In this document: piece after piece, positions 7,830 to 50,021 of the stretch
Layout: every line of letters starts with the position of its first letter
Numbering within the stretch: the first letter of the stretch is position 1
Origin: an uncultured virus (IMG/VR IMGVR_UViG_3300031783_000001)
Taxonomy: Duplodnaviria > Heunggongvirae > Uroviricota > Caudoviricetes
Length of the DNA: 64,000 nucleotides
Reading direction: 5' to 3' (one strand)
Virus record (IMG/VR): IMGVR_UViG_3300031783_000001
Notes under the pieces: generated by a model
The model's input: the letters and a program-made list of their open reading frames with translations, nothing else
What the model was told of the DNA's origin: nothing
Database searches by the model: none
Translations under genes and position numbers: made by a program

Positions 7830-8762
7830 TTGCTTGTGCTTTTTGATTGGCCTTACATAAAAACTTGCAACTGTTCAGAAAACAAGCTATCCTGTCTTGA
7901 TGCCAAATCTTGGATTAGAGCGCAGATCGGTGTGTGGCGCGTGGCTTATGAAAAGTACGACATCAGAGACAAGACCATTCACCCTGCCACATTCCCTATA
8001 CAGCTAGCAAGAAGAGTCATAGAACTTTTCACACACGAAGGCGAACTCGTACTGGATCCATTTTGCGGTATAGGAACAACGCTACTAGCAGCTAAACAAC
8101 TAAACAGAAATGCCATAGGAATAGAAATAAACTCAAAATACGTAAAGATTGCTAATCAAAGATTGAATCAACACCTTAACTTATCCTCATCAAAACAAAT
8201 AGCTATATGCGACGATGCAATCAACATAGACAAACATATCGAAGGGCAAAAAGTAAAACTTGTTTGGACTTCTCCACCGTACATGACGTTACTAAATAAA
8301 GTAAGAGAAAATAAATCACGAAAGAATAGGAAAAATTATCAATACAATCAAATAGAACAGTACTCTAGACTACCTAACGATTTAGGAAATCAAGAAGATG
8401 AACTCTACTACTCTTCAATAAGAAGTATCTTTGAGAAAATAAAATCTGTTATAAGACCAGACGGACACTGTGTAATAAACGTAGGTGACTTCTACAGAGA
8501 CAACAAACTTGTACTACTGCATGAGGGGATAATAAGAACCATGAATAGTATAGGTTATAAACTAGAAAATGTGATTATTTGGGATAAGACAAACTTAGTG
8601 AATGGAACCGGTATATTTGGTTATCCTAAGCGTTACATGACAATGTACGTAACATACGAATACCTGCTTCATTTTGTGCGGACTGCTCAACCTTTTGCGG
8701 TTGAACTTCCTGCTTCGTCGCAGGATGGCTACGGTTTGCCAGGGCCTGCTCCACAGGCGTAA
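7830..8762 (+). CDS. N4-cytosine DNA methyltransferase (orphan); C-terminus extended by an IS end
   Basis: HPATFP, VLDPFCGIGTT (motif I), WTSPPY (N4C-type motif IV), IIWDK, YEYLLHF, then IS-derived RTAQPF... from 8678. Confidence 0.88.
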   Translation: MLVLFDWPYIKTCNCSENKLSCLDAKSWIRAQIGVWRVAYEKYDIRDKTIHPATFPIQLARRVIELFTHEGELVLDPFCGIGTTLLAAKQLNRNAIGIEINSKYVKIANQRLNQHLNLSSSKQIAICDDAINIDKHIEGQKVKLVWTSPPYMTLLNKVRENKSRKNRKNYQYNQIEQYSRLPNDLGNQEDELYYSSIRSIFEKIKSVIRPDGHCVINVGDFYRDNKLVLLHEGIIRTMNSIGYKLENVIIWDKTNLVNGTGIFGYPKRYMTMYVTYEYLLHFVRTAQPFAVELPASSQDGYGLPGPAPQA

Positions 8763-8897
8763 CTTCGGGCCGTCCTAGCCCTACGAAGTAAAGATTGATA
8801 GAGGCGTTTACGTCTCTATCATGATTCTCACCACACCCAGGGCAGCACCACGTTCTGTCATGTAGTGCCAAGTCTTCATTTTTGTGGCCACATCGAT
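8678..8897 (-). mobile_element. IS605 tnpB 3' fragment with omegaRNA/right end (internally deleted)
   Basis: Encodes RCGHKNEDLALHDRTWCCPGCGENHDRDVNASINLYFVGLGRPEVTPVEQAL and ends in ...gttgagcagtccgc at 8678. Confidence 0.9.
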
Positions 8898-11144
8898 TCA
8901 GTTATAAACTGCTATCTGAGTGTTATCTACAAGACCGATTGTAGAAAACATGACTATCACTTTGTAAACATAGTTAAGGCTTTTATCCACCCTATGAGTA
9001 TCTACTTTAACATTAAAACTATGAACCGCAACATTACCATAACGATTCATACTTGATTGTACTGTTATCACTTTTGCAGACCCAACAGGGATGTCACTTG
9101 CACTTTCGCATTTTAATTGGTATTTGCGATTGTACTTAATATCCTTAAATTCCATAATAGATTCAACGTGATATTTACTGCCCTCGCCAACATGATAGAC
9201 AAGCCCCTTAATGAATACTTTGTGTTTTACAATCAAGTTCTGGTTGTATAAATATAGTATTTCGTTTTTCTTTTCTGAAGTATCGTACAAGTGCTTTAAC
9301 AAATCAGTGAAATGCATATTCTTATCCTCTTTGTTCTTTATTTTATTTATAATTTCGTTTAGCAAAATGCTTTTCATATTGTGCTTTAGCAAATAGGAAT
9401 AGGGGTGTGATAAAAGTATTATTTTGCCATTTGAACGGCCTTCTCGTATATCATGTCTAACGATTGCAAAACGTGTGTATGGAATTTTATCTCTTATTTT
9501 TCTATTTTTCATTGGCACGATTTTTATTAGCACGCATTTGAATAACATGAATGTATATAGAGTACCTGCTTCTTCAAGAGTATATGATTTATAAAGCCCA
9601 ACTTCACACTTCTTTCTCCCTTTTTTTCTTCTTTTTTTTCTTTTACCTCGTATTTTATCAGCAATTTGATCAACTGATTCCTTTACTGATATTGTCTTTG
9701 TGTATTCACTAACATCTATGATCAATGGCCTGTTTTGCATTTTGCAGACTTTTATTATCTCCTCTATCTTACTTAAATCCACTATACGATTATTTCCGAT
9801 CCTTATGCATGCTGGGTTTTCTTCTATTAATTTTGGTTGTATGACGGCAAGAACGAGTTGGTTATTAACGGTTATAAAGCATATTCCTCTGCGTTTTAGC
9901 ATGTTGATGTTAGCATTGCTAAACTTATGTGCTAACTTATAACTATCCCCGTCCCAATAGTAAATCTCTCCATTTTTGAGCACATAGTCATCAAAAAAGG
10001 CATCTATAGAGTATAGCCGAGATTCACCTATATTATATCTATCACTTATTGGATACTTTTCGTGTAATAAAGTGTCATTGGCTGACATATCGTAATTATC
10101 AGTGGCTACATGTATTTGAATTCTTTTACAAGTTAACATAACGTTTAATTCGTTATTCTCAATGTAAGCTGAAAATTGTATAACAGTAGAACACGACATT
10201 TCTTTTTCATGCTCATTTTGTTGTTGTATGGTTCTATAAGATATTGCACTTTCCAGTTGCAGTAAGAATGTAGCTTCACACTGACTGTATATTGGTATTT
10301 TGTTTTCATACTTGATGAGATTGCAGTCGTTGTCTGATATTTCTTCCTGTGCCAATAAAGGTAGATAAGACTGTAGGAAACGACTAACAACCATACGTGC
10401 ATTTGCAAATATGTCATCAAATTCAAAAACGATCCCATATTTTTCTTTCAAACTATAAACAAAGGTTTTAACGTGTTTTTCTATGTAGTTTTTTAAGTTA
10501 TATGAAATTTCTTTTACATTTTCTTTCAACAAGTCTACTGTATATATGCTAATTTTTTCAAGTTTATTGTTAGTATCTATTCGCATTATTATGATGAATG
10601 AGTTATACAAAGGCTTAGTGTAGGTAAGCATAAAAGATACACCTTGGTTGCTACTGCGCATAAAGTCATGAGGCCTTCCTTCCTCGTGCCTAAATATTTC
10701 ATTCCCCTTTGTCAGATTTTTTATGGTAATTAGATGATACTGAATGTTTCTGTACAGTTTGTCCGTTTTATGACCAAAATGATAAGACGCAACATACAAA
10801 TTACCGTTAGGTGCTCTAATAAATACGCTGGGTCCTCCTACATATTTTTGAGGATCTATACTTAAAAGGTTATATGCTTTGCTTTTATAGTCAAAGAGCG
10901 GAATAATAGACATATTGCCATATTTCTCCACATTATAATTAGTAAACCTTACAACATTACCTATTGTATGAAATATTGTTCTATGATTATCATATTCGTA
11001 AGTAAATAGGTCTGATGTCACATGTTCTTTCACTGTAACAGAACTGCTGCTATTAAAACATCTTGCATTACCTAATGCTGGTAATCTGATAAATGTAGCA
11101 ACCTTACAATTGATTAGCATATTGTTATTGGGGCTAATGAACAT
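8898..11144 (-). CDS. Large hypothetical protein, paralogue 1 of a ~700-aa family
   Basis: 748 aa. Shares N-terminal (CKVATFIRLP, IIPLFDYK) and C-terminal (DIKYNRK) blocks with the ORFs at 39590, 45572 and 47673; preceded by AGTATATTTACAAATG. Confidence 0.8.
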   Translation of the reverse strand: MFISPNNNMLINCKVATFIRLPALGNARCFNSSSSVTVKEHVTSDLFTYEYDNHRTIFHTIGNVVRFTNYNVEKYGNMSIIPLFDYKSKAYNLLSIDPQKYVGGPSVFIRAPNGNLYVASYHFGHKTDKLYRNIQYHLITIKNLTKGNEIFRHEEGRPHDFMRSSNQGVSFMLTYTKPLYNSFIIIMRIDTNNKLEKISIYTVDLLKENVKEISYNLKNYIEKHVKTFVYSLKEKYGIVFEFDDIFANARMVVSRFLQSYLPLLAQEEISDNDCNLIKYENKIPIYSQCEATFLLQLESAISYRTIQQQNEHEKEMSCSTVIQFSAYIENNELNVMLTCKRIQIHVATDNYDMSANDTLLHEKYPISDRYNIGESRLYSIDAFFDDYVLKNGEIYYWDGDSYKLAHKFSNANINMLKRRGICFITVNNQLVLAVIQPKLIEENPACIRIGNNRIVDLSKIEEIIKVCKMQNRPLIIDVSEYTKTISVKESVDQIADKIRGKRKKRRKKGRKKCEVGLYKSYTLEEAGTLYTFMLFKCVLIKIVPMKNRKIRDKIPYTRFAIVRHDIREGRSNGKIILLSHPYSYLLKHNMKSILLNEIINKIKNKEDKNMHFTDLLKHLYDTSEKKNEILYLYNQNLIVKHKVFIKGLVYHVGEGSKYHVESIMEFKDIKYNRKYQLKCESASDIPVGSAKVITVQSSMNRYGNVAVHSFNVKVDTHRVDKSLNYVYKVIVMFSTIGLVDNTQIAVYN

Positions 11145-11355
11145 TTGTAAATATACTGCAAGGCAGAAATATATTTAATTCCACACTTGAACGAATATTG
11201 TTCCTTTCCCATGCATTCTACGTACTAGTATTTCGTACGATTTCTTCGGTTAATCAATTTTGTTAGTCTTTCGCATTATTCCATACAACTGAGAATCATA
11301 TCCTTAAGATTAGGATGGTATGAAGTAGAGTAGATTCTGACGTACGACTGTAGTC

Positions 11356-12267
11356 CTACGAGCTACCTAAAAACCAACCTGCTTCGGAATTCACACTCTT
11401 TGCTTCATATCCCGGTTTTATCAGAAGTAACTCCACTATATGTCCTCTATATTCCTTTTTCGGGCCTATACGATAAAAGTGTTTGAATTCTACTTTTATA
11501 AAATCTCGCAAGTAGATGTCAATGTGTTTATTTTTCCGATATTTATCTTCCTGCCATGTCGATAATGCCAAACCTGAAGGCAACTGACGGACTAGGTTGT
11601 ATAATTCAATGGCATCCTTTTCTGTCCATTTTTGATAGTAATCCGTACTTCTACCTGTATAAGGTGGGTCTAGATAAACAAAATCATCTGCTTCTACATC
11701 TTTAATGCATTCTTTCCAATCCCCAACTCGGAATTCCCATTCCTTGTTTCGCATAATTTGCTGTATCTGGGCAATACGATTGACTATTTTAGAAACGTAC
11801 GCTTCAGTGAAGCGGGTTGGTTCGCGACAAAATGGAACATTGAATTCGCCTTTGCTGTTGAAGCGAACTAAGCCGTTATAACATGTCCTGTTTAAAAAAA
11901 GAAAATCTAATGGATCGCCATATTTATTGAAGCGTTCTCTGACTAAGTAGTAGTAATCCTCTCCATAAGATGAAAGCTTCTTGCCTTCCGACAAAAAGTA
12001 TGATCTTACTTCTTCAGGCGACCAGTCTCCATCATAAAGCATTTGGTAAAGCCTAATGATATGCGGATTGATATCGTTTGCTAACGCACGCTCTGGTTGA
12101 ACATTGAACAATACGACTCCTGAACCCAAAAATGGCTCAATCCATCTTCCTTCGCCGCTCCAAGAAATGTTACTCAAAATGAACTTTACAAGTTTCGTCT
12201 TTATGCCTTGTGATTTTATCGGCGGGATTACAACATTCTGAATGTTTTTGGGCAAGAAATGAGACAT
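11356..12267 (-). CDS. Dam/D12-class adenine methyltransferase, M.EcoRV-like (orphan)
   Basis: PPIKSQGIKTKLV, EPFLGSG, FLFLNRTCYNGLVRFN, FNVPFC, YLDPPY, HFY.IG. This resembles M.EcoRV from memory, so GATATC specificity is an inference. Confidence 0.88.
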   Translation of the reverse strand: MSHFLPKNIQNVVIPPIKSQGIKTKLVKFILSNISWSGEGRWIEPFLGSGVVLFNVQPERALANDINPHIIRLYQMLYDGDWSPEEVRSYFLSEGKKLSSYGEDYYYLVRERFNKYGDPLDFLFLNRTCYNGLVRFNSKGEFNVPFCREPTRFTEAYVSKIVNRIAQIQQIMRNKEWEFRVGDWKECIKDVEADDFVYLDPPYTGRSTDYYQKWTEKDAIELYNLVRQLPSGLALSTWQEDKYRKNKHIDIYLRDFIKVEFKHFYRIGPKKEYRGHIVELLLIKPGYEAKSVNSEAGWFLGSS

Positions 12268-13313: not shown

Positions 13314-13381
13314 AGCGCTCATGTCGTCGAAAACGCAAGGTAAAACAGGACGTGGGGGACTACCTTGCGCGATTTCGGCAC

Positions 13382-13419
13382 AAAAGAAACTGCCCTGCCC
13401 GTTGTGGGCAGGGCTTGCC
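13382..13419 (-). terminator. Intrinsic terminator
   Basis: GCCCTGCCC-ACAAC-GGGCAGGGC hairpin then AGTTTCTTTT; equivalent structure at 42993-43030. Confidence 0.7.
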
Positions 13420-13441
13420 TACTGCTTGGGCGGGTGAGCGG

Positions 13442-14038
13442 TTACTCGTGGGCTACTACGCTTTGTAGGCGGTTAGCAATGGCGAGGTACCGCTTGACCA
13501 AAGAGCGGATTTGCTTGACCGTCAGGCTAGTGTTCTTTGGGAGGGTGTCCAGCACCTCTTGAAGTCCCTCAAAAGTAGGCAGCGCGTCCAGAAAGCTTTC
13601 CACAAGATGCTGCTTTTGCTCCCTTGGGATGCGTACGCGCCTCCTTCCTGTGCTGCTGGATGTCCGAGCGTAGCGAGCGGGTACTTCCAGCCCGAAAGCG
13701 CTAAGGGATTCCCGAAGGGCCTCGTTACGGAGCTTCTGCACAATGGGAGCTACATTCTTCTCCTCATTCATGCTTTTGACGGCCAGGAGCTCGTCCAGCT
13801 TAGGGCTCAAAAGGTACGCTGCGATGCATCGGTACCAGCCGCCATGCTGCGAAACCGCTACACCTGCACTTGCAATCTCCTCACGAATCTGTGCTTCCAC
13901 TTCGTGAGGGAGGAAGCTGTGCTCCCCGTTCAGCTCCTTTTCCAGATTCGTGATTAGCTTCTTCAGGCTCCTTTCTGTGAGAGACTTCTCAATCCGAACT
14001 TGGAGTTCGGTTCCACTGACTTTCACATGCGTCGTCAT
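13442..14038 (-). CDS. Hypothetical protein, family B copy 1
   Basis: MTTHVKVSGTELQVRIEKSL...GGWYRCIAAYLL; highly similar to 42370-42966. Confidence 0.85.
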   Translation of the reverse strand: MTTHVKVSGTELQVRIEKSLTERSLKKLITNLEKELNGEHSFLPHEVEAQIREEIASAGVAVSQHGGWYRCIAAYLLSPKLDELLAVKSMNEEKNVAPIVQKLRNEALRESLSAFGLEVPARYARTSSSTGRRRVRIPREQKQHLVESFLDALPTFEGLQEVLDTLPKNTSLTVKQIRSLVKRYLAIANRLQSVVAHE

Positions 14039-14058
14039 ACCAAACATTACGACGAAAG

Positions 14059-14065
14059 CGCAAGG
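14059..14065 (-). promoter_or_regulatory. Class-2 promoter motif CCTTGCG..TTT(C/T)G(A/T)CG (representative copy)
   Basis: The motif begins exactly 27 nt before the ATG at 13340, 14065, 14712, 41756, 42343 and (variant) 43242. Confidence 0.75.
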
Positions 14066-14104
14066 AAAGTTAGTTACCGTTTTCGGATTTCAGTGGATGA
14101 GGGC

Positions 14105-14685: not shown

Positions 14686-14735
14686 AGCGCTCATGTCGTC
14701 GAAAACGCAAGGTAAAACAAGACGTGGTGGTGAGG

Positions 14736-15133
14736 TTAGCAACAGTTGCTAACTTCTGTCTACAAGTGTATATTTATAGCATAAACTTCTAAATATGGTG
14801 AGGAAGAAAGAGGTGCGCAGCGGCTGAAAATTTTTGTCTAGTTTAGTATATTTACGTACAGCGGGGAGAGCGAGTCAGCTGCCCAACAAACCGTCAACCG
14901 CAAGATGGAACGGGTGCGGGGTCTTACCCATGTAAGGCAAAAAAGCTGGCAAGTTCTCTCCGTAGCCTTCGCCTTCTCCTGCCTTGAGAGTCTTAGAGAC
15001 TTCTCTCCCTTGAAGAGAGTAATCCTCGCAAGGGATTGGGTAGGAGCGGCGAAACGAAACGGGCTAGTCCCTCCCTACCTGGTCAGGGGACGAATGCACT
15101 AAATATGTACAGTTTTGTATAGTTTGGGCCAGG
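14736..15133 (+). mobile_element. Non-autonomous IS607-like mini-element (left end + promoter + omegaRNA/right end), copy 1
   Basis: Follows GAGG; starts TTAGCAACAGTTGCTAA; 3' ~270 nt match 30986-31262; ends ...CCAGG (CCAGG is duplicated, so the end could be 15138). Confidence 0.88.
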
Positions 15134-16640: not shown

Positions 16641-17177
16641 TTATTTTTGTTCTATCATGTATGCTCTTAGTATCCTCCTTTGTGTGTACTCGTCAGTTTT
16701 GAAGGGATTAACGGCTGAAAGGCCGTATGTAACCTCTGTGAATATTTTATTCGGGTATCTTTCTCTAAGCATGCTTATAGTTATAGAACTTTCCGGAGAG
16801 TCATTAAAGATGATTAGAAATTCACCTTCTAGTTTTTCTATTTCTTCTATATTCAACATATCCAGTGTTACAGCCTTATATGGTGTAACGAGACCACCAA
16901 GAACGACAATGTTTAGGTGGTCATGTTTAGTGTGTAGTTCTGCTGCGTCAGATACTGTAGGTACTAAGACGTACTTACCTGCCTCTTCGCGTGCCTTAAA
17001 ACTTAGATTACGCAGGTCTTCTATAAATTCATCCAGAGCACCTGTGTAAGCCAATTCCAGTACCCTTTTGGCTAAACTTTTCCCGTACTTCTGAGAAAAC
17101 TCGTATGGCCTCATATCTCTTCCTATTTGGGTCGAAACTTCAATGGTTTTTGACGTAGTGATTAATTTATAGGTCAA
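16641..17177 (-). CDS. Hypothetical protein
   Basis: 178-aa ORF directly upstream of and co-oriented with the ATPase. Confidence 0.65.
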   Translation of the reverse strand: MTYKLITTSKTIEVSTQIGRDMRPYEFSQKYGKSLAKRVLELAYTGALDEFIEDLRNLSFKAREEAGKYVLVPTVSDAAELHTKHDHLNIVVLGGLVTPYKAVTLDMLNIEEIEKLEGEFLIIFNDSPESSITISMLRERYPNKIFTEVTYGLSAVNPFKTDEYTQRRILRAYMIEQK

Positions 17178-17182
17178 TAAAC

Positions 17183-17467
17183 TTATAGTATGTCATTTTT
17201 ATTGTCATTATTTAGAACAATTGCCGCACTTAATAAGATATTGCCTAATAGATTTAATGTTATTAATGTTATTGCTAACCAAGTAGGTTTAATACCAGAT
17301 ATAGCCCAGATTGTCCATATAACAGATAGGAGCCATAAGAAGTAAACGATGACACGACCCCAATTGAATATCATACTTATCATGGTATCGAAACAACGCC
17401 ATACCGCGTAAGGGAGTAAAACAGAAATGCTGATTAGCAAGCAGTAAGCTCTGTCAGCTCTGCACAT
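17183..17467 (-). CDS. Small membrane protein, paralogue of 19602-19787
   Basis: Hydrophobic helices; WTIWAISGIKPTWLAITLIT versus WTVYAIIKIRPVSLAMTMIT. Confidence 0.6.
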   Translation of the reverse strand: MCRADRAYCLLISISVLLPYAVWRCFDTMISMIFNWGRVIVYFLWLLSVIWTIWAISGIKPTWLAITLITLNLLGNILLSAAIVLNNDNKNDIL

Positions 17468-17723
17468 CTAAGCCAAATGGAGTTTGGCTGTTATTTGTAA
17501 GAAGATGTAAAAATCTTTCAGATTTATGCTCATTCGCGTTTACACGAATAAACTAATATGGGCTCTACGCACTCAAAATAATACTCTTGTATTGAAGAAT
17601 CTAGATTGTGATAAGTATCAGGTGTAATCGCTTCCTCAACTCTATTCTTTATATCAGTCATCTTATTACGAAAAACAGTAATCTTATTTTCTGCTTTTGT
17701 ATTGATAACAATATGATTACTGT

Positions 17724-19274: not shown

Positions 19275-19315
19275 TAACTAAATATACCTAAACATGAAAT
19301 AAATTATGACAAACT

Positions 19316-19520
19316 TAGTATATTTACATAGCATACGATGTGCATTGTGACTAAAAGCGTACAAGTATCGTATTTACCTTATTGATGAGCAGGTAGTGTT
19401 CTTTGCTAAGACCTTCGGATGCTGTAGGTTTGTCCGAAACAAAATGCTGGAAAGGAAACTGTAGGATTACAAAAATAAAGAACTCATCCAACAAATCACA
19501 CCCGTCAAATATAAAGATGT
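19316..19520 (+). pseudogene. tnpB: Decayed 5' fragment of the IS605 tnpB with its promoter
   Basis: ttagtatatttacatagc followed by ctaaaagcgtacaagtatcgtattta...gtgttctttgctaagaccttcggatgctgtaggtttgtc, matching 6011-6215, with stops. Confidence 0.85.
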
Positions 19521-19601
19521 TGCGTTCATGTAGTTCTATGTTGATTTTGTCCTATAACTTGTAAACTTTGTAGATGATTTTTAATAAATCTATTTTTATA
19601 G

Positions 19602-19787
19602 CTACTCATCCCAAAAATCATTTGTGATTGTTACAGAAGCGGTGATAAGAAATGTACTAAGAAACATAAATGTAATCATTGTCATTGCTAAAGAAACGGG
19701 TCTAATTTTAATAATAGCATAAACAGTCCAAATGATCCATAATATCCATAACCCAGTAATAATTATGTTTTTCCAGCGGTGCTTCAT
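19602..19787 (-). CDS. Small two-helix membrane protein
   Basis: 61 aa, two hydrophobic segments, paralogue of 17183-17467. Confidence 0.6.
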   Translation of the reverse strand: MKHRWKNIIITGLWILWIIWTVYAIIKIRPVSLAMTMITFMFLSTFLITASVTITNDFWDE

Positions 19788-19871
19788 AGTAGTATGTTTT
19801 GTGCGTGAGCTATTATGGTACCGCAGTAACGACGCAAGGCATTTCGTCGAAAGACAGACGAAGCTACCTTT

Positions 19872-20692: not shown

Positions 20693-20743
20693 CATAAAAC
20701 TCACAACTGTCCTTTTAGCGTTTCGACACAATAAGTCCTCATC

Positions 20744-20816
<73 letters not shown>

Positions 20817-20883
20817 CCCGCCATCGGTCTGAATATTCAGAGCAAACCATCAAAACTACACAAAGTAATTCACTTCTTTTCGA

Positions 20884-21852: not shown

Positions 21853-21863
21853 TCAGTATATTT
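21853..21863 (+). promoter_or_regulatory. Class-1 promoter motif TAGTATATTT (representative copy)
   Basis: Motif or 1-2-mismatch variants lie 3-8 nt before the starts at 1009, 6029, 11144, 19274, 21872, 22455, 33096, 35565, 39486, 41710, 47575, 47673, 60311 and 60347. Confidence 0.8.
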
Positions 21864-22423: not shown

Positions 22424-22454
22424 TATATTTTTTGTTTTTGTAGTACATTTAATC

Positions 22455-33831: not shown

Positions 33832-33834
33832 AGC

Positions 33835-35674: not shown

Positions 35675-35696
35675 TATCCTACATAACTATCCCTAT

Positions 35697-39523: not shown

Positions 39524-39560
39524 GCAAACTGCTCAACCTTTTACGATTGAACAATCTGCT
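39524..39560 (-). mobile_element. Degenerate IS605 right-end remnant
   Basis: gcaaactgctcaaccttttacgattgaacaatctgct versus gcggactgctcaaccttttgcagttgagcttcctgct. Confidence 0.75.
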
Positions 39561-39589
39561 TTATGTGCCACAGAGTTGCACTCTGAAAC

Positions 39590-41710
39590 TTAAACCTTTA
39601 TAACATGCATTTTACGAACTACACTGAGTTCTGTTAAAAGCAGAAGAAACGAATTATCACTAATTATTTTATCTCTATCTTCGCACTGGTAGTCAATAAC
39701 TATTAATTTATATGGAGTGTAGTGGACTTTCTTATTAGCGCACTTTATGTTATAATCAAAATACTGCCTGTACAGTGCCCTAAAAGTTAAACTCCTTCTA
39801 TTATACTTAATGCTACTTATATAGCCATATCTGTACATTAAGTCTAAATTCATCATTTTCTTTGTGTCATCAATATCTCCCTCTTGCAACTCGTAGAAAT
39901 CCATTTTTTCTATGGCTCGGATATAGCTTGCCTTATTTTCAAATTTATTTTTATGATATCCTTTTTCAATCTTATCGTATAGTAGTGATAACTTAACATT
40001 ATTTTCTGATATTTCTAACACAAACAGTCCAATATAAATTTCTTTATCTATTTTATATCTTGCTATAACATACAAATTATCTGACTTTTTGTCCATATAG
40101 TGTGTTATGGCCTTTATATCTGATAATGAATTAACAACTTCATGCTTTTTTGAAATAGCTTGTTTTGCCAAATCATCTACATTATAACATTTAACTATTT
40201 CGGTTATGTTTCTATACTCTTCATTTTTGCATTCTGACAGTTCTTTTGTATTAAAAAATTGCTCTATCTCTGCTCCATCTATAATAGAAATACAGTCTAG
40301 ATGAATAGATATAAAAATTAGTTTATCTTGATTAGTGATATAGTAATGAAATAACGTATAAAAATTAATACAATATTGGGATTCATTTACTTCACCAGGT
40401 ACCGCCCACACAGACATTAGATTACGTTTTGTGTCTATAATAGCCAGTTTTCTTCTTCTGGAACTTCTCCGATTGTTGATTATAATCCAGTAGTTCTTGT
40501 AAGGATATATTGCTGATAGTTTACAAACATCTTCGTAATATTCGCCCTTTTTCATATAGGTAAGACCACAACTATCGCTTCTCACATAATAACAATCGTT
40601 ATCAAACATAAAATTTGATAGATAATTGTTCATTATCGTGCGTTCAAGCTCATATTTTTCTACAAGAAACTCGTAATCTTTAAAAAGCCTATTACAATAT
40701 ATATAGTGGTCATGTACCTTTTCAAACTTACCATTTTCCAAGTCTAAACAGCATATTATACGCCTACCTCTTAGTTCTATCTTAATATTCAAAACTAAAC
40801 TCTTAAATTCAATTATATCAACCTCAACTCTAATACCTTTCAGATATGATACATGATACTCATTTGTATCATACATGTAATATATGTCCCTAACAACAAA
40901 CTTTTCTATTCGCTTAAATGGTTTAAGACCAACTCTCTCTGCTTCATATTTCGCTCCTTCTATTATACTATCATATTCTTTGTTTATGTTTGTTAATTTA
41001 TCTACTATTTTTCCTATGATACTACTTCCATCGTCTATGCCTAGTATCCTATTTGATATTCTTTTTATGTGTTTTAATTTGACATTATCATCACCTTTTA
41101 TTCTATAATACGCTATGTCAGCTGCCATTATAACATTTATCAATTTATTTATATGTTCTAACTCCCACGATATAGTACGTACTTCGTCATTTGCGAGATT
41201 ACATAAAGCAACACCAATACCATTCTTTGTAACATATAGGACAGGTACTACTACATTGGCAATAGGATTAAAGTATTCACAGTATAACTTATCAGATACA
41301 TCTAGTTCATAAAGAGTTTTACTATCCGATTCATTAAATATAACTAAGTTTTTATCTTTATTAACAACATAGTACTTACCATCTTCCGTTTTGATCAATA
41401 AGCTATTTTCTCCGGTAATGGAATATTTATCTGCTCTTGATTTAAAAATATGACAAGTATTGTGCTCAAAATCATAAACAGGAATTATTGACTCACTATC
41501 AGACTTTTTGTAGTAATTGATGATATTATTTTTTGAGTAAAAATATGTAACATAATATCCTCGCTTTACATAATAAATTGTGTTGGATAGATTGTTATAT
41601 GGATAATAGTTATCCAAAAAAACATTTAGCCGATTAGCTGTATATGGTATTTTAGCATAAGAAGTAATCCTGACTGGCAATCCAACGCTGTTACTTAGTT
41701 TAAGTAACAC
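39590..41710 (-). CDS. Large hypothetical protein, paralogue 2 of the ~700-aa family
   Basis: RITSYAKIPY, FYSKNNIINYY, IIPVYDFE, SIKYNRR; GTG start placed 3 nt after TTAGTATATTT (track start 41728). Confidence 0.8.
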   Translation of the reverse strand: MLLKLSNSVGLPVRITSYAKIPYTANRLNVFLDNYYPYNNLSNTIYYVKRGYYVTYFYSKNNIINYYKKSDSESIIPVYDFEHNTCHIFKSRADKYSITGENSLLIKTEDGKYYVVNKDKNLVIFNESDSKTLYELDVSDKLYCEYFNPIANVVVPVLYVTKNGIGVALCNLANDEVRTISWELEHINKLINVIMAADIAYYRIKGDDNVKLKHIKRISNRILGIDDGSSIIGKIVDKLTNINKEYDSIIEGAKYEAERVGLKPFKRIEKFVVRDIYYMYDTNEYHVSYLKGIRVEVDIIEFKSLVLNIKIELRGRRIICCLDLENGKFEKVHDHYIYCNRLFKDYEFLVEKYELERTIMNNYLSNFMFDNDCYYVRSDSCGLTYMKKGEYYEDVCKLSAIYPYKNYWIIINNRRSSRRRKLAIIDTKRNLMSVWAVPGEVNESQYCINFYTLFHYYITNQDKLIFISIHLDCISIIDGAEIEQFFNTKELSECKNEEYRNITEIVKCYNVDDLAKQAISKKHEVVNSLSDIKAITHYMDKKSDNLYVIARYKIDKEIYIGLFVLEISENNVKLSLLYDKIEKGYHKNKFENKASYIRAIEKMDFYELQEGDIDDTKKMMNLDLMYRYGYISSIKYNRRSLTFRALYRQYFDYNIKCANKKVHYTPYKLIVIDYQCEDRDKIISDNSFLLLLTELSVVRKMHVIKV

Positions 41711-42304: not shown

Positions 42305-42369
42305 GTCCTCATACGCCAAATTGCAAAACAGGAACTAACTTTCCTTGCGTTTTTGTCGTAATGCTTGAT

Positions 42370-42966
42370 ATGACGACGCAAGCGCAAATCGGCGGAACCG
42401 AACTCAAAGTTCGGATTGAGAAGGCCCTGAACGAAAAAGGCCTGAAGAAGCTTATCACGAATCTGGAAAAAGAGCTGAATGGTGAGCACAACTTCCTCCC
42501 TCACGATGTGGAAACACAGATTCGTAGGGATATTGCAAGTGCTGGTGTAGCGGTGTCGCAGCATGGAGGCTGGTACCGATGCATCGCAGCGTACCTTCTG
42601 CTCCCTAAGCTGGACGAGCTTCTGGTCGTCAAAAGCATGAGTGAGGAGAAGAATGTAGCTCCCATTGTGCAAAAGCTCCGTAACGAGGCTCTTCGGGAAT
42701 CCCTCAGCACCTTCGGGATTGATGTACCCGCTCGGTACGCTCGGACATCTAGCATCACAGGTCGGACTCATGTACGCCTCTCACGGGAGCAGAAACAGCA
42801 GCTTGTGGAAAACTTTCTGGACGCTCTGCCCACTTTTGAGGGACTCCAAGATGTGCTGGATACCCTCCCTAAGAACACCAGCCTGATGGTCAAGCAGATT
42901 CGCAGCTTGGTCAAGCGGTACCTCTCCATCGCTAACCGCCTCCAAAGCGTAGCAGCGCACCAGTAA
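42370..42966 (+). CDS. Family B copy 2
   Basis: MTTQAQIGGTELKVRIEKAL...; colinear and highly similar to 13442-14038. Confidence 0.85.
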   Translation: MTTQAQIGGTELKVRIEKALNEKGLKKLITNLEKELNGEHNFLPHDVETQIRRDIASAGVAVSQHGGWYRCIAAYLLLPKLDELLVVKSMSEEKNVAPIVQKLRNEALRESLSTFGIDVPARYARTSSITGRTHVRLSREQKQQLVENFLDALPTFEGLQDVLDTLPKNTSLMVKQIRSLVKRYLSIANRLQSVAAHQ

Positions 42967-43076
42967 CCGCTCACCCGCCCAGAAGGTAGGCAAGCCTTGC
43001 CCACAACGGGCAGGGCCGTTTCGTTTTCATTCAAATCGCGCAAGGGAAAATGACGGGCGCCTATCTTATTCTCGAT

Positions 43077-43837
43077 CGGACTATTCAACTTTTCGTAGTT
43101 GATCTTTCTGCTTCAACACATGATGGCTTTTTAGATAGGTCATAAAAGATACTTTTATTAACCAAAGAATGTTACAATAAATCATTTATTTTGTATATTT
43201 TGTTATCGTATGAAGAAGTTAGCGTTAAGCTGACTGTTTTGTCCTGCACTTTCGACAGGGGAAGAGTTATGGAAACGCATGTGCAAGTTAGTGGGGTCGA
43301 ACTCAAAACTCGTATTGAGAAAGCCTTCACTACGAAGGAAATGCATCCTGCTATCGACCTTCTAGAAGAACTGTTAAAAAATGATATTATGGAATTGCCA
43401 TGGTGGATAGATGGTATTATCATAGAACGACTGCGAAATGCTGGTGTAGACATCAAGAAGAATGGTGGCTTTTACCGCTGTATCGCAGCATACGCTCTTC
43501 TGCCAAAAATGGATGAACTCATAGATTTTGAACATCAGCATACACGATTGGGGGAAAATGACACATTGGAAAACGAAAATTTACTTGAACAGTGGTTTGA
43601 AATAGTAAATGAAGCTGTTTCAATTACAGTTAATTCTATCTACTTAGAGTTTGAACAGACAGACAAATAGTAGTTATCCTCTTATGAAAAATAAACAATC
43701 AATCATATAGAAAACTCAGGCGGGCTATTTTCCTTCCTAAATTTATCAATCCTATCCTCAACAGTCCTTATGGGTTACCTAAAAAGCTATCATGCGTCGA
43801 AGTAGGAAGCTTAACTGCAAAACGTTGAGCAGTCCGC
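43077..43837 (+). mobile_element. Inverted pair of degenerate IS605 right ends enclosing a family B gene
   Basis: 43077-43140 cggactattcaacttttcgtagttgatctttctgcttcaacacatgatggcttttt (inverted) and 43771-43837 ...aaaagctatcatgcgtcgaagtaggaagcttaac...gttgagcagtccgc (forward). Confidence 0.75.
43269..43670 (+). CDS. Family B copy 3 (shorter, divergent)
   Basis: METHVQVSGVELKTRIEKAF...GGFYRCIAAYALLPKMDEL. Confidence 0.8.
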   Translation: METHVQVSGVELKTRIEKAFTTKEMHPAIDLLEELLKNDIMELPWWIDGIIIERLRNAGVDIKKNGGFYRCIAAYALLPKMDELIDFEHQHTRLGENDTLENENLLEQWFEIVNEAVSITVNSIYLEFEQTDK

Positions 43838-45392
43838 TGCCACCCGATAGTAGCCTATTTATAGGAGATGTTTTTACTCCGACAGAATGGGGTATTTTCG
43901 CTATTGAAAGGTTTGGTTTTTTTGAAAAATGGCTTTCAGGATGTACTGTTTTTGACCCAACTATGGGTGAGGGAAATTTATTGGAAGCGTTCATACTTCT
44001 TGGAATATCAAAAAAATTAAGTTTAAGTGAATTGCCCACTCACAATCTTTTTGGAAATGAATTGAATACGATTTATTATCAAAATGCTATTACAAAATTC
44101 AAACAAAAATATGGTATAGATTTATCTTCAAACTTTACTAATGAAGACATTTTTGTATTAAAGCCACGACAATATGATCTTATTTTAGGGAACCCTCCTT
44201 GGCAGAATTTTGTAGATTTGCCAAAAGAGTACAAGGAAAAAATAAAGCCATTTTTCTTAAGGTACGGACTAGTAAAAAATCGTCAAAGTGTTTTATTAGG
44301 TGAGAGTAGGATTGATATATCGGCTGTTGTTATTCAGTTATGCATTAAAGATTTTCTTAAGGAAAACGGAGAAGCAGTTTTTTTTGTTCCACTTTCTATA
44401 TTCTTAAATGACGGAGCTAACAAAAATTTTAGATTGTATCAGGTAGATAATACGAGTTTTAAGGTTACAGCAATTTATGACTTTAATGATGTAGAAGTAT
44501 TTAAGAATGTATCAACAAGGTATGGCCTTTTTCATTTAATCAGAAACAAAGAAACTACTTTTCCTATTCCTTATTATCGCTATGAGAATAATCAGTGGCA
44601 AGAGTATTTTGCATCAACAGCCTTTCATAAAACGGATCCTTTAAGTATTTTAAGAGAGTGCAAGATTTTCAGTAAAAATCATTTACCGAAAATTATTCTA
44701 AAAAGGAATCCGCACCTCGTCAAGGAGTTAATACGTGTGGAGCAAATGATGTTTTCTTCTTTGATAATTATCAAGATATTGATGATTCTTTTGCCGTTGT
44801 TTCAAAATAAGGTTCATAAAGAAGTTATACTGCCCAAAAAATTTATTTTTCCTCTAATAACAGCTAAAAATTTTTACATAAACAACCTTTCTGATCAAAA
44901 TGTAATTTATGTCTCAAATAATAATGTGTATAAATGGATTTTATTACCTTATAATCAAAACGGAAAGCCATTAGACTTATCACAATTACAGCAATATCAC
45001 GAACTTTATAGTTATTTAAAGAAGAATAAGGATATTTTAGTAAACAGAAAAGGGACTATGCTGAAAGCATTGATTCATAGAGGGCAATGGTGGGCATTAT
45101 TTGGAGTTGGAGAATATTGCTTTTATCCATACAAAATTGTATGGGAAGCATACGGTAAAAGTAGTTTTAATCCTTTGATATTTGAAGGGAAATGGCAAGC
45201 TAATCAATCTTTACAGGCTTATATCCCAGTAAAAGTATAGAAGAAGCAAAGAGAATTCAAAAAGAACTCTCTAACAAAGCTATAGAAAATTATTTACTGT
45301 CTTTGAAAATGGAAGGAACAATGAATTGGGCACAACCTGGTAAGATTAAAAAATTTATTGAGTATCAAGTAGATCTTGACGAAGAGCCATGA
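43838..45392 (+). pseudogene. N6-adenine methyltransferase (gamma class, TaqI/Eco57I-like) with frameshifts; 5' end abuts an IS end
   Basis: GDVFTP, FDPTMGEGN, ILGNPPW. The conserved-looking RQGVNTCGANDVFFF lies in another frame (44700-44805) and the tail KSIEEAKRIQ...NWAQPGKIKK follows a shift at ~45233. Confidence 0.8.
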
Positions 45393-45571
45393 TTGGACAG
45401 CTCTCTGGCGATAGATTATCCCTGAAACGCTATGGGTCTACAGTGCCCATCTGCTGCACACGACTACACTCGCTGAAAAGTCAGACTTACACCTGTATCC
45501 GATTATTATGTATACGCCTATTTGGGAACTGTTCAAGCGAAAAAGTTGAGCTGTTGCGTGCTTGATATCTT

Positions 45572-47575
45572 TTATATCTCTATAGCTATCATTGTTCTGA
45601 CTAGCGCTAAATCCGCTTTAATAAACAACAGTGCTAATCTATTAGTTCCATCATAGTCTATTAAGTGTGTAACAGGTATCAAATCTTTAAAACTAAAAAC
45701 GGATTCCCCTAATACTGTATATCTTCCTGTAGTAACATCTATACTATTTCTATTATGTCTAATACTAACAAGTCGTTTAATATTTTTACTGTATGCTATA
45801 TCTAAGTCCCCTGATTTATCTACTGATTCATCTATCTCAAATCTATAAAGAAAAATTTTAGACAGGCTAAGTTGCTGGTAATTCTTATTTAGCAGTACAT
45901 TAAGTGGTATTCCGACTTGGCTATAACGCATTTGACTATGGTGCAATATCTTTAAATTAACGTTATCACATGATATCCTGAGTGAAAATACTCCTATGTG
46001 CTGTTCCCCACGAATCACATAAGCGACAGATATATATAATGTGTCTGAACTAGTATCAATATAATGACTTATCAATTGCACTTCTTCGATCTCAATCTTA
46101 ATGTGTTGCGCACGAGCAATAGCTTCTGTTATTAATTGATTTACGTCAAAGCAGCATAGTATAGTATATAAGTTGTCCTTACTATTACTATCATCTTCGT
46201 AATTACCTATGCACTCTGAATGTTTATTACTTTTGAAAATAAAATCCAGTTTGTCAATGTCTATAATTAATAGAGTTAAACAGTGTTTGGACAAGAAAAT
46301 TAGTTTATTCTGTATTTTAGAGTAATAATGTATATATTCTACTTGACAATAAAGATTGCAATGTTTAAACTCCCAATACCCTATTCTATTATGTTCTATA
46401 TCTATAATAACTAACATTTTATTTGCTGCATAAAAGAATATAATAAGATACTTTCCATAGCGATATAACGCTGTTTGACGGGGCGATAATTCTATGTAGT
46501 CACTTTCAGACGCTTTTATAATACCAGTACCAGCAGGTGTATTATATATATAGTAGCACTTGTCCTTGTATAAACATGTTGATAAATAAATGTCACTAAA
46601 TCCATCGGAAATGGAATATTTATGTATTACAGGTTTTAGTGTATTATTAACCCTAAAACTACGGTAGCTGTGAAAACGGCTCCAATTTAGGTTTACTTTA
46701 TCCGAATCTAACCAGCAATTTACATCTTCTCGATCTAATTCTATGTGACAAAATAGATCGCGTAACATACATGTGTCATAGTAGTAAGGGCTTCCTTTTT
46801 GCTTGTATCTTACTTCAAAACTAAATCTACACATAAATCCTTTTGTATATATAAAGTTTTTATTAGATAGTTCATGCAGGTATTTCTTTTCCGTTATACT
46901 AAAACTTTCTATATAGTCTATCTCATGATATGATAAATAATTTTTTACAGCTACATGACGATCTAAATCGTTAATTACTAACTTCACTAAGTCGTCTATA
47001 TCTTCTAAATTGATCGTTATCATGGTATGTATATTTTCATTTTCAACATCAAATAACTTAATATATATACTCCAACGCGTAACTTGTATGATAGGCAATA
47101 TTCTATTAGCCACAGGGTATAAAATATCTATGTATATGTTACTATCGCTTTTTATTTTCTCTTTATATAAGCATTTCCCACTTAATGCATCTACTATAAG
47201 TGCATGTTCTGAACTTGATTGGCTTGTAATAACATACCACTTACCTTTCTCTGTTTTAATTAATACAGCATTCTCATCTTTTATGCCAATATTTAAATTT
47301 TTCAATAGAATAGGATTGTAAGTTCCTGTTTTATTGTCTAATACAAATAGTTCTTGTCCGTGAATACGTTTTCTGTAGTAATTTATTATGTTGTTTCTAC
47401 TATAAAAACATGTCTTAAATGTGTCGTCCTCAACACAATACATCATGTTATTCATTTGATAATAGGCATTATAAGCACTTCTATAATAATTTCTGTCGTT
47501 TCTAATGTAAGGAATCTTGGCATGAGATGCTATCTTGATATTCAATGTATGGGGAGGTTTTGAATTAAAAAACAC
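45572..47575 (-). CDS. Large hypothetical protein, paralogue 3 of the ~700-aa family
   Basis: KIASHAKIPY, FYSRNNIINYY, SIRHNRN; GTG start placed 3 nt after TTAGTATATTT (track start 47608). Confidence 0.8.
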   Translation of the reverse strand: MFFNSKPPHTLNIKIASHAKIPYIRNDRNYYRSAYNAYYQMNNMMYCVEDDTFKTCFYSRNNIINYYRKRIHGQELFVLDNKTGTYNPILLKNLNIGIKDENAVLIKTEKGKWYVITSQSSSEHALIVDALSGKCLYKEKIKSDSNIYIDILYPVANRILPIIQVTRWSIYIKLFDVENENIHTMITINLEDIDDLVKLVINDLDRHVAVKNYLSYHEIDYIESFSITEKKYLHELSNKNFIYTKGFMCRFSFEVRYKQKGSPYYYDTCMLRDLFCHIELDREDVNCWLDSDKVNLNWSRFHSYRSFRVNNTLKPVIHKYSISDGFSDIYLSTCLYKDKCYYIYNTPAGTGIIKASESDYIELSPRQTALYRYGKYLIIFFYAANKMLVIIDIEHNRIGYWEFKHCNLYCQVEYIHYYSKIQNKLIFLSKHCLTLLIIDIDKLDFIFKSNKHSECIGNYEDDSNSKDNLYTILCCFDVNQLITEAIARAQHIKIEIEEVQLISHYIDTSSDTLYISVAYVIRGEQHIGVFSLRISCDNVNLKILHHSQMRYSQVGIPLNVLLNKNYQQLSLSKIFLYRFEIDESVDKSGDLDIAYSKNIKRLVSIRHNRNSIDVTTGRYTVLGESVFSFKDLIPVTHLIDYDGTNRLALLFIKADLALVRTMIAIEI

Positions 47576-47587: not shown

Positions 47588-47623
47588 AAGGTTGAGCAAC
47601 CTGCTCAACCTTTTGTATTTGAG
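47588..47623. repeat. Back-to-back fused IS605 end remnants forming a perfect 11-bp hairpin between divergent paralogues
   Basis: AAGGTTGAGCA-ACC-TGCTCAACCTT, continuing ttgtatttgag. Confidence 0.8.
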
Positions 47624-47672: not shown

Positions 47673-49734
47673 ATGCTGTTAACTTCTATCCATACGACGA
47701 CCTTAACCTGTAAATCTACTAAATGCCTCAAAGTGCCTGTATTACAAGGCAAACAGTACCATGAATATAAAACACGCAAGTCATACGACAAAGAACCAGT
47801 AAATATATATATTATCAGAAATAGCATTTATGGAAAATCACACATAGGAGACTGGATAAATATGTTTTATAGCAAAAATGATGTTATATACTTTACTAAG
47901 TATTTTGATGATAAAAAAAATCGTTATCAAACCAATATATGATTATAAAAATAAAATGTTTGAGTTTATAAAGTTATATCGTGAGGAACATGGTGAAATA
48001 TCATCAGATGCCATATATGTAAAATCGCCTAACAGCAGCTTGTATGTGGTATATAGAAGAACTATAAAAGTGGAAGACAAGAATGCAGTGGGTTGTATAG
48101 TGTACAACTACACAAAAAATAGAATTGTACATAGAGCTATAGGCGATGCACACTCTCGCATAATACATACGGCGCCTATAGCTAATTTGTTTGTCCTGAT
48201 AGTTATTGTAAGGCAGGAAGAACTTTACATAGAATTAGTAAATCTAGTAGAAGAGTACGTGGAAGTAATCAAGTATAACCTCAAAGACTTTATAAGTAAG
48301 ATACCAAGTATAATACAAAGTACCATACCTAAGTCTTACATCAAAAAGCTCATCGGTACACCTATCAGTGGTTATGTAGACCAAGAGGAATACCCCAAAT
48401 ATGTTATGACTAAATACAAAGAAGCTGTACCAATCTATAAGAAAGTAATATTATCTATTAATATTGCGGCTAAACAGGATTCTTTTGTAATACCTAATGC
48501 TATCTTGGTTGCGGCCATTTTTGAAAATAATGAACTCCTCATAGAACTTAACACGGGTGAAGAAAGTTACATAGAGATAAAAGGGAGTAAAATCGGTAAG
48601 ACTAACATAAAATCAGGTGTTACATTGTTAAGAAAGAGATACAAATTAAATGATATATATGATATAACAAAGTCGCATCTCTACGAAATCAATAAATCTG
48701 GCAAGAATTTTATATTGGCGAATAGAGAACTATATGTAGCACAAGATGGCAATAAAAATGACTATTTTGTATTGGATTACTATGACGGCAAATTTAGTTT
48801 CAATGATATAGATTTAATTCTAACGTACAATCACATCTTGCTAAGTAGGGCGAAAGTTCCCTCAAAATTGATTACCGATAGTGGCATGTACGACTTAACT
48901 AACTGTCGATATAAAATAGAATATATATCATGTAACTCAGACAGAGGTGGTGGATTGGCTTTACTAGATCTGAAGAAGTTATACCACCAATTCCGTAGAA
49001 CCTTAAACATAGGACAAGAAAACGACATTATAATACCAGATAGTAATGAATTTAAAATAAGGGTGAATACAAATGAAATAATAAGACGCACAATTTGTGA
49101 AAAGGGCAATGAAAATTATCAGAAAGTAGAATGTATATATACCCACTATTTAGACAATATGAGAGGAGTTTTATACATAGTCATGATACCACTTTACTAC
49201 AAAGATGATAATTACAAACAATCTGAATATGGTATTGTAATCGCGGAGATTGAACCTAAGAGATCGCTTAAAAATTACAAGATTATCTTAGGCATGGGAC
49301 CGTATTTGTATGAGACACTAGATGAAAGAAACTCGATTAACTTCAGTGTTATGTTGAAAATAAAGAATAATTTTAGCAATATTTTAGCTTTATATGACAT
49401 AATATCTACTCTTAGTCGTGCTGCAGTTTATTTAGATAATGTTTATTATTCTAATCTAAATATGCTTGGCCACGATTTGCTTATATATAATCAAGAGATA
49501 TCAGTAAAAATAAATGGGAAATATGTGGAGGTAACGGATATTAGACAAAATCGTAGGGCGAGTTTTAGTCATTGGATACAAGATGAATCCTTATACTTTG
49601 CTCCAATTATTAGGCAATACGACAATGTTATTATGTGCTATTGGGGAAATACTGATAGCTCGTCTAACGAACAAAGATTATACACTCTTGTTGTAATTTC
49701 AGAGAATAACATGGTAGAGCACATCGAACTGTAA
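47673..49734 (+). CDS. Large hypothetical protein, paralogue 4 of the ~700-aa family, split at an A8 run (47913-47920)
   Basis: MLLTSIH..CKSTKCLKVP..FYSKNDVIYFTKYFDDKK joins IVIKPIYDYK...DIRQNRR if one A is removed. Confidence 0.8.
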
Positions 49735-49789
49735 AATTTGGCGGCTTGTTCGGATTTTTGCAACTGAGCCTACTGCTACTTTGCATGGC

Positions 49790-50021
49790 AGCTGAAGACG
49801 GCTTGACATTGCGCAAAAGATCATGAAGTTGTTTCGTATGTGTCACAACGCATGACAGGGGTGTAAACACTTTCACAAGTCTTGATTTCGTAAAGGTATG
49901 ACAAACCGAAGTTATGCCTGTGGAGTGTGCTCTGGTGGGTGAACGTAGCCCCTACGGGATACCTAAAACGCCATCGTGCGTCGAAGCAGGAAGCTCAACT
50001 AAAAAACATCGTGCAGTCAGC
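49790..50021 (+). mobile_element. Decayed IS605 tnpB 3' tail with omegaRNA/right end
   Basis: ccgaagttatgcctgtggagtgtgctctggtgg...acctaaaacgccatcgtgcgtcgaagcaggaagctcaact...gcagtcagc, preceded by a degenerate THDR.VN-coding stretch. Confidence 0.85.

Follow-up and report, generated by a model that had tools for sequence, protein, structure and literature searches.

TnpB elements are understood to be selfish units that persist through RNA-guided cutting. Meers et al. 2023 (PMC10055086) described PATEs as encoding omegaRNAs that need TnpB in trans, retargeted guides are reported for TldR and other domesticated proteins of TnpB descent (Wiegand et al., PMC10705468), and promoter/stem-loop cassettes (PeSL) were described in T4-type phages (Arbiol et al. 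2010, PMC2839356). The DNA analyzed here, referred to as the window, is a stretch of 64,000 nucleotides (nt) from an uncultured virus (record IMGVR_UViG_3300031783_000001, Caudoviricetes). It encodes four copies of a ~700-aa protein family, named c1 (8898-11144), c2 (39590-41710), c3 (45572-47575), and c4 (47673-49734), and each copy is followed on its own strand by sequence derived from the 3' tail and right end (RE) of a tnpB element.

A sequence-only reading of this DNA had assigned the family to a fixed "TnpB slot". We found that the association between the family and the tails is real, but that the slot has no fixed architecture: the motif preceding the genes is a general one, most of the tails are decaying, and the tails of relatives may lie upstream, in antisense, or be absent. 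We tentatively favor, with a confidence that falls a little short of even, the view that recombination between scattered RE repeats has copied promoter-gene-RE cassettes and swapped one for another.

The protein family and the tails behind its genes

The four proteins are homologous, as the sequence-only reading had proposed. They are united by a chain of BLASTP matches (c2-c3, E 6.5e-28; c1-c4, 3.4e-13; c2-c4, 8e-5; c1-c2, 5e-3) and are all matched by a single family hidden Markov model (HMM; E ~1e-169 for c1), with paralogue identities of only 20-27%. Three copies are open reading frames (ORFs) on the minus strand, namely c1 (748 aa), c2 (706 aa, GTG start), and c3 (667 aa, GTG start). The fourth, c4, lies on the plus strand; it is a family member but not the single ORF it had been taken for, as its N-terminus is read in the frame 47673-47939 and its remainder in the frame 47860-49734. 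The frameshift falls at an A8 run (47913-47920) that is one base longer in the window than in the in-frame c4 orthologue of G001, a related viral record of IMG/VR. The extra base may therefore reflect a pseudogene, a slippage site, or a homopolymer/assembly error.

Behind c1, the tnpB 3' tail with its omegaRNA scaffold and RE occupies positions 8678-8897 on the minus strand. It begins immediately after the stop codon and aligns with positions 7013-7255 of IS_A, an intact tnpB element of the window; with the nhmmer profile of the insertion sequence (IS) tail that was used to score all tails, 8798-8678 matched at E 9e-34. This tail is without one hairpin of ~25 nt, whose 7 pairs were lost as one clean deletion. 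Among the 54 consensus pairs left, 53 are kept and 1 is broken, with 15 private substitutions; simulation of these substitutions predicted 7.3 +/- 1.8 broken pairs, and a value as low as the actual one came up in only 1 of 5000 runs. A second tail fragment, inverted relative to c1 and devoid of the terminal hairpins, lies upstream of the gene (11301-11387, plus strand; nhmmer E 9.7e-7, profile positions 13-110).

The other three tails are less complete. The decayed tail and RE behind c4 (49797-50021, plus strand) start 62 nt after the stop codon and align with IS_A 7031-7255 (nhmmer 49876-50021, E 1.2e-43), and 20 of the 61 consensus pairs are broken, the same as under random substitution. Behind c2, an RE relic (39524-39561, minus strand; nhmmer E 0.012, and a regular-expression match) begins 29 nt past the stop codon, comprises ~38 nt from the terminal hairpin, and is followed by the promoter motif of the next gene. 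Behind c3, a decayed terminal hairpin of 20 nt (45530-45549, minus strand), 23 nt after the stop codon, was recognized by eye and by regular expression and falls below the nhmmer threshold. Of the co-oriented RE/omegaRNA sequence that had been claimed behind every copy, the c1 and c4 instances are thus strong, that of c2 is marginal, and that of c3 is a hairpin only. Together they form a decay series, from the near-complete c1 tail through c4 to the hairpins of c2 and c3. Co-orientation and a spacing of 0-62 nt are nevertheless found in all four copies.

Right-end sequence also lies upstream of some copies. Between the divergent c3 and c4 promoters, positions 47588-47623 had been read as a fused, outward-facing pair of ends; repeat analysis confirmed the derivation from an RE but indicated a palindromic remnant of its terminal hairpin. 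The layout at c4 is antisense RE hairpin, promoter, gene, and tail. The proposed resemblance to a complete tnpB element is apparent at c1 and c4, which look like the IS with tnpB swapped, but no upstream left end was found at c2 or at the G001 paralogues.

Three long tails start near one position of tnpB (7013, 7025, and 7031). Identity between the tails and the live IS is 66-84%; given the 20-27% identity among paralogues, the tails must be either much younger than the gene duplications or repeatedly renewed. A regular expression for the RE hairpin gave 13 matches at 12 sites in the window (one palindrome matched on both strands), all of them RE-derived. About 14 RE-derived sites were counted in the 64 kb. 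The possibility that the hairpin is a general terminator of this genome was rejected, since the expression matched RE-derived sites only. A common origin of the 22-25-nt hairpin deletion seen in the tails of c1, G001, and L002 (at 6855; L002 is a related contig) was also discarded: the end points differ and microhomology is present, so that independent slippage is as likely as common descent. Among contigs of public runs, none spanned the c1 tail and no tail-free c1 variant was found, but these contigs break at repeats and are uninformative on this point.

The association was counted over the window, G001, and L002, asking of each gene whether a tail or RE of the same orientation lies no more than 200 nt downstream. 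Such a sequence follows 6 of 10 family genes and 1 of 78 other genes (Fisher p = 2.6e-6), in counts that are not independent, and the association recurs in G001. The lone positive among the other genes is the one preceding the c4 orthologue in G001.

The motif AGTATATTT, said to stand 3 nt before each gene and to be used by tnpB too, indeed precedes all four copies, by 3 nt (c2 and c3, GTG) or 4 nt (c1 and c4, ATG). It is far more widespread than that: the window contains 15 exact sites against 1.9 expected, a number reached in none of 100 shuffles. Of the 25 sites of GTATATTT, 10 open an ORF of at least 60 codons within 12 nt. Four of these ORFs are the family genes and one is a tnpB, while the other five, a 1974-aa ORF among them, are unrelated. 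We therefore rejected AGTATATTT as a tnpB-specific signal, as at least five unrelated genes are also preceded by the motif; being genome-wide, it does not tie the family to tnpB or to a "TnpB slot". This distribution suggests a virus-specific, general promoter-like element that would give leaderless or near-leaderless mRNAs. The extended form (TTA)GTATATTT is found 0-8 nt before the starts of unrelated genes, for example at 60316-60324, 33105-33113, 21855-21863, and 19280-19287, and a sigma-like gene is present at 20884-21819.

Searches with the proteins themselves returned no named relative. Pfam (WD40 and kelch included) and PHROG gave no match for any of the four copies, and a search of PDB sequences at E up to 1 found no relative of the family. 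A profile search of 1.84 billion representatives detected 119 family clusters at E up to 1e-3, so far seen only in metagenomes; most full-length members measure ~590-770 aa, the others are shorter fragments, and none is named. The best score in the Protein Atlas was 0.88, to unnamed clusters that gave no lead, and pattern scans of IMG/VR proteins with A2, c1, c4, and A4 returned no family members. Literature searches, conducted mostly without full texts, yielded no description of the family or of its association with transposon ends.

A first structure model, based on 14 sequences, was poor (predicted local distance difference test, pLDDT, 68) and was replaced by one built from a 59-sequence alignment (pLDDT 85.1; predicted template modeling score, pTM, 0.85). 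Beta structure predominates in the latter, which also contains two inserts, one helical and one cystatin-like. Foldseek matched it to WD40-type repeat proteins only, with template modeling (TM) scores <=0.24, and the exhaustive structural aligner VIA reached a best Z of 7.9 or less, with nothing at Z >=8. The VIA matches over residues 13-695 were Nup133, a paramyxovirus attachment protein, and kelch-type propellers (Z 6-7.2; root-mean-square deviation 5-7 A). Judged from this model, the family would consist of fast-diverging, beta-rich, propeller-like proteins, the resemblance being a generic one. Pieces of c1, 100% identical, occur in contigs of an RNA library at a depth of 2.4-3.7; DNA may contaminate such a library, so this weak evidence was not counted as proof of transcription.

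tnpB elements, mini-elements, and turnover among relatives

The window carries two intact tnpB elements, IS_A (5907-7255, plus strand) and IS_B (34339-35686, minus strand), which are 85% identical and were delimited by repeats and Pfam domains. Their proteins have the domains of IS200/IS605 TnpB (HTH, OrfB_IS605, and TNB, with Pfam E values of 2.9e-29, 1.4e-23, and 2.4e-19) and match the solved ISDra2-type TnpB 8h1j at E 5.9e-77. The motifs IDLG, VEDIN, and HDRDVNA, which we take to be the RuvC catalytic motifs, are present in the alignment. Two incomplete elements accompany them on the plus strand: IS_C (31265-32224), recognized by repeats, is truncated at its 5' end, and synteny with G001 resumes exactly at its RE; IS_D (43077-43837), recognized by repeats and the tail profile, is internally deleted. 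Just upstream of IS_C, a 408-aa ORF (30002-31228) has a weak match to the TNB domain only (E 1.4e-4) and may be what is left of a second, divergent tnpB-like gene.

Every copy terminates in ...CAGTCCGC, beyond which the flanks diverge; community contigs show many different flanks past the RE, and the IS sequence reaches 25-125 times the depth of c1 there. The last ~250 nt of the element can adopt a 61-pair consensus fold, including a helix that joins ~7017 to the RE, and this RNA-like structure overlaps the final ~230 nt of the tnpB gene. A search of the tnpB tail against Rfam at E up to 10 found nothing meaningful. The left ends hold an antisense copy of two RE hairpins (5920-5974 against 7201-7255 in IS_A; 35620-35674 against 34339-34393 in IS_B), so that the termini are 55-nt inverted repeats, and the same arrangement occurs at joints in community contigs. 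An inverted RE copy at the left end is atypical for IS200/IS605 elements. The left flanks differ (...GCATAT, ...AGGATA, ...AATTAA, ...CTTAGT), in a comparison of few sites whose boundaries slide by 2 nt, and no target motif shared by the 3' ends of family genes or the IS flanks was evident by eye. No Y1 (HUH) TnpA was found among the scanned ORFs of the window or in four related viral records, and a copy in the host or one that was not seen is possible. A search of 185,579 species genomes for the exact right-end pattern found no match.

A tnpB-less, PATE-like omegaRNA mini-element of 218 nt (33833-34050, minus strand) has no ORF; its promoter-like motif is followed by the final ~131 nt of the tnpB tail and then by the RE. 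As it abuts a tRNA-Arg gene, its would-be guide is the first bases of that gene. G001 does not have the mini-element, and the difference between the two sequences is a clean insertion. Further copies, 90-92% identical and with unrelated flanks and different downstream "guide" sequences, are found on the IMG/VR contigs L010, L011, and L013-L016, and others lie at L002 15332-15560 and L005 455-610. At least four contexts can be distinguished (the window; L010/L011/L013/L016; L014/L015; L002). Compared with the intact IS, the mini-element shows one compensatory change of a U-A to a C-G pair. Another record, G002, carries an intact tnpB (83% identical) plus a mini-element unit.

G001 is 60.6 kb long and shares large blocks with the window at 90-92% identity; with a CheckV completeness of 28%, its genome would measure ~200 kb. 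The comparison shows that ISDra2-like tnpB elements and tnpB-less omegaRNA mini-elements are gained, lost, and eroded in this lineage. At the site of IS_B (window 34339-35697), G001 keeps a ~17-nt scar (8783-8797) resembling a fused RE, an example of how short RE relics arise. Cassette-level differences likewise appear between relatives whose flanks are 90-92% identical. Together with a neighboring ORF, c2 is absent from G001. The break coincides precisely with the TTAGTATATTT belonging to the next gene, a motif before which the window has the c2 RE hairpin. In place of c3, G001 has a 386-aa gene that is unrelated to it and has an RE behind it. In the window, right ends flank c3 on both sides (45530-45549 and 47588-47623), and an RE hairpin followed by the promoter motif is found after c2, before c3, and before the family genes of L005-L008 and the c4-like gene of G001. 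As in PeSL, variable genes are thus bordered here by a stem-loop and a promoter, and relatives differ from the motif onward, in a few cases. The family genes sit in variable regions of a large virus-like genome.

G001 has four family genes. The tail of the gene at 22434-24452 starts 3 nt after the stop codon, at IS_A 7099, and behind the gene at 27339-29456, 55% identical to it, a decayed tail lies at a distance of 164 nt from the stop codon; the two genes share ~65 nt of upstream sequence, which points to duplication of the whole unit. A third gene (24604-26760) converges on the tail of the first. The c4 orthologue has a 56-nt RE (675-620) in sense orientation just upstream, at a place that matches 47588-47623 of the window. 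Elsewhere the geometry varies. On L001, a weak co-oriented tail lies behind the family gene (E 1e-4), and on L009 a hairpin follows it after ~40 nt. The tail is upstream of the gene and abuts the promoter on L005/L006 and L007/L008, while L004 has two tandem family genes and no RE, and the gene on L003 runs off the contig. Orthologues of c2 at nine metagenome loci show shuffled contexts and varying tail geometry, and no close relatives of c1, of c4, or of the c2 group were found in IMG/VR. The same unit with the same boundaries was not found at different sites, and only the G001 pair shows whole-unit duplication. L002 also contains a pair of ~670-aa paralogues (4842-6854, minus strand; 19114-21159, plus strand), more distant and linked to the family only by one weak BLASTP match (2.9e-7); the former is bordered on both sides by antisense tnpB tails (4698-4833 and 6855-6971).

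Weighing the explanations

In the explanation that we tentatively favor, family genes would move as cassettes made of a phage promoter, the gene, and an IS right end. The dispersed RE/omegaRNA copies of 55-230 nt, with the short promoter motif next to them, would serve as portable homology, and recombination between these sequences would duplicate, replace, and sometimes invert the cassettes. Breaks made by TnpB next to right ends might stimulate this recombination. The tails would then be relics that mostly decay after the event, and the family proteins would not be substitutes for TnpB. Such recombination would account for right ends on either side of the genes, the decay series, the fusion at 47588-47623, the G001 duplication, and the fact that no transposase was found. 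Being palindromic, the terminal hairpin could permit inversion, which fits that fusion and the antisense tails of L002. A preference for cargo or recombination had also been expressed in the sequence-only reading. Several observations weigh against the favored explanation. No two unrelated contexts were found to share an identical cassette, and neither circular nor recombinant intermediates turned up in the contigs, in which mini-circles were not looked for. On L002, none of the three HMM-detected family genes has a downstream tail, and the association count includes two G001 genes that are duplicates as well as the c3 hairpin, which was added by hand. The divergence of the paralogues far exceeds that of the tails, as given above. 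Twice, in c1 and G001 22434, the tail lies within 0-3 nt of the family stop codon, a precision that homologous recombination does not predict and that hints at a site-specific event. Finally, recombination at right ends does not explain why the family, and not its neighbors (methylases, the 226-aa gene), bears tails.

In another explanation, the IS would prefer to insert co-oriented just downstream of family genes and would later lose its 5' part by deletion, with no cassette mobility or function; we regard this as possible, if unlikely. The sharp RE boundaries, the many RE-end flanks in community contigs, and the clean insertion polymorphisms are consistent with it. Tails that start at the stop codon fit deletion bounded by selection, and the hairpin losses resemble slippage in unselected DNA. 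However, the last bases of the family genes contain no evident common target motif, the flanks of IS_A, IS_B, IS_C, and the mini-element differ too, and the upstream right ends and the G001 whole-unit duplication are left unexplained. A chance coincidence of two things that both accumulate in dispensable regions is suggested by the many RE-derived sites of the window and by the family genes being the commonest large genes of the region. We hold this to be quite improbable in view of the 6/10 against 1/78 count, the co-orientation and short spacing in all four copies, and the recurrence in G001.

The most interesting alternative is that the family genes are non-autonomous OMEGA cargo, which we consider distinctly doubtful. 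In it, the family gene would replace the body of tnpB between the promoter/left end and the omegaRNA/right end of the IS, with the omegaRNA as 3' untranslated region; TnpB from intact copies would cut cassette-free sites in co-infecting relatives, and repair would copy the gene in. The c1 tail speaks for this, as it starts at the stop codon, spans the whole predicted scaffold including the helix that closes it with the RE, and keeps 53 of 54 pairs where random change would break 7.3, as do the shared 5' boundary of the three long tails and the IS-like sequence on both sides of c4. Intact TnpB copies with RuvC motifs, close to ISDra2 TnpB, are present, and tnpB-less omegaRNA units are demonstrably mobile in the lineage. 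PATEs, as described by Meers et al. 2023 (PMC10055086), provide a precedent for omegaRNAs used in trans. On the other side, the c4 tail has degraded to the extent expected under random change, and only the hairpin is left at c2 and c3. The hairpin lost from the c1 tail is kept by the conserved stand-alone units and shows covariation, and the good state of this tail may merely reflect youth. Moreover, no empty site with a transposon-adjacent motif (TAM) plus guide match was found for any of the four cassettes, and the geometry varies among relatives. A bolder version, which we judge improbable, would make of this an RNA-guided gene drive in a jumbo phage: TnpB acting in trans would drive the tnpB-less passenger gene into cassette-free relatives, and the stand-alone promoter-bearing omegaRNA units would be extra guides for the same TnpB. 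That the family proteins are themselves new omegaRNA-binding effectors replacing TnpB is very improbable, and the binding of omegaRNA-derived guides, which had also been suggested, finds no support. Gene order and co-orientation with an omegaRNA-like tail are what speaks for it. Against it, profile comparison with hhalign uncovered no resemblance between the family and the TnpB of the window (probability 0.4%), the sequence features of TnpB/Cas12-like proteins (a RuvC-like core and a TNB/zinc finger) were not detected in the family, and Pfam, PHROG, and PDB sequences gave no match. The model resembles generic beta-propellers only (TM <=0.24, Z <=7.9); as regards a RuvC/RNase H-like fold, the matches listed for it were of propeller type, which does not by itself exclude a fold not listed. 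In addition, three of the four tails are degraded or reduced to a hairpin, and many family genes of relatives have no tail.

Genomic setting and comparison with known systems

The window has a G+C content of ~37% and encodes a DnaE-type polymerase, a sigma-like protein, six DNA methylases, two tRNAs, and the TnpB proteins. None of the 21 proteins tested matched PHROG; among INPHARED phages, the polymerase gene had no DNA match and c2 no tblastn match. At gathering thresholds, Rfam detected the two tRNAs and nothing else. Public runs containing the c1 stretch, the only stretch searched, are labeled as hot-spring or microbial-mat metagenomes, and we treat the source as a large phage-like genome from such communities.

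The six methyltransferase genes (N6_N4, D12, and Eco57I-like) fall within 45 kb (2-892, 1009-5102, 7830-8762, 11356-12267, 43792-45240). Two neighboring ones share segments that are 83-95% identical, and the 3' end of the gene at 7830-8762 overlaps the antisense right end trailing c1. A ~400-nt non-coding repeat is present at 14732-15130, 20271-20669, 26469-26867, and 30858-31256, as well as at L009 457-723 and G001 1-125; three copies are 93-97% identical and one ~62-66%. Its copies contain a hairpin and then two GTATATTT motifs spaced by 78 nt, and one copy stands directly before tRNA-Met. This repeat has no Rfam match. An Rfam search with a D1 repeat copy gave nothing meaningful. A repeated gene of ~730 nt (201-226 aa) occurs several times per genome, at 13363-14090 and 42318-43045 in the window, 8704-9494 and 12227-12987 in L002, and 3529-4396, 16991-17697, and 26712-27398 in G001. 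Its copies have 83-88% nucleotide identity and are often neighbors of family genes; the product has no Pfam or PHROG match, and the gene may be another mobile or shuffled cassette. The 1974-aa ORF (54387-60311) contains at least six tandem, G+C-rich 33-nt repeats (57226-57466), with Pro/Gly-type codons on the coding strand.

The significance of the locus lies in the repeated joining of guide-RNA ends to viral genes of a family that is unrelated to TnpB and diversifies rapidly; promoter-bearing, tnpB-less guide mini-genes are present in the same genome. If the ends only give portable homology, they would be a new source of the "linker" sequences by which genes are shuffled in the variable regions of phages. 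Should some tails still function with TnpB in trans, the family genes would be passengers exploiting RNA-guided homing; such use would amount to a natural multi-guide TnpB arrangement, a possible step from a transposon toward a CRISPR-like system. With its 119 clusters, a confident model, and no known relative, the family is a good target for the discovery of function.

Compared with described systems, the elements of the window resemble tnpB-only IS200/IS605 elements of the ISDra2 type in their TnpB domains, in the structured RNA at the 3' end of the gene, in their sharp right end, and in being present or absent between relatives. They differ in that their left ends carry inverted RE hairpins, the motif serving as their promoter belongs to the virus, their exact RE sequence is missing from the species genomes searched, and no TnpA was seen in the scanned ORFs and records. 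The 218-nt unit and its copies are similar to PATEs in having no ORF, in keeping the omegaRNA 3' scaffold and RE in varied contexts, and in preserved pairing. Unlike PATEs, they have a phage-type promoter-like motif at the 5' end and reside in viral genomes, and the tails of the family genes have a 2-kb protein gene in front. The likeness to the TldR systems is that TnpB-family guide RNAs are found outside a canonical transposon and in viral DNA; the protein of those systems is a TnpB derivative, whereas the family protein is unrelated to TnpB. As with the PeSL of T4-type phages (Arbiol et al. 2010; a further reference is Comeau et al. 2014, PMC4122927), a short repeated stem-loop plus promoter borders non-essential genes of variable regions, and the breaks between close relatives fall at the motifs. 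The difference is that the stem-loop here is no plain terminator but derives from the guide RNA/right end of a transposon.

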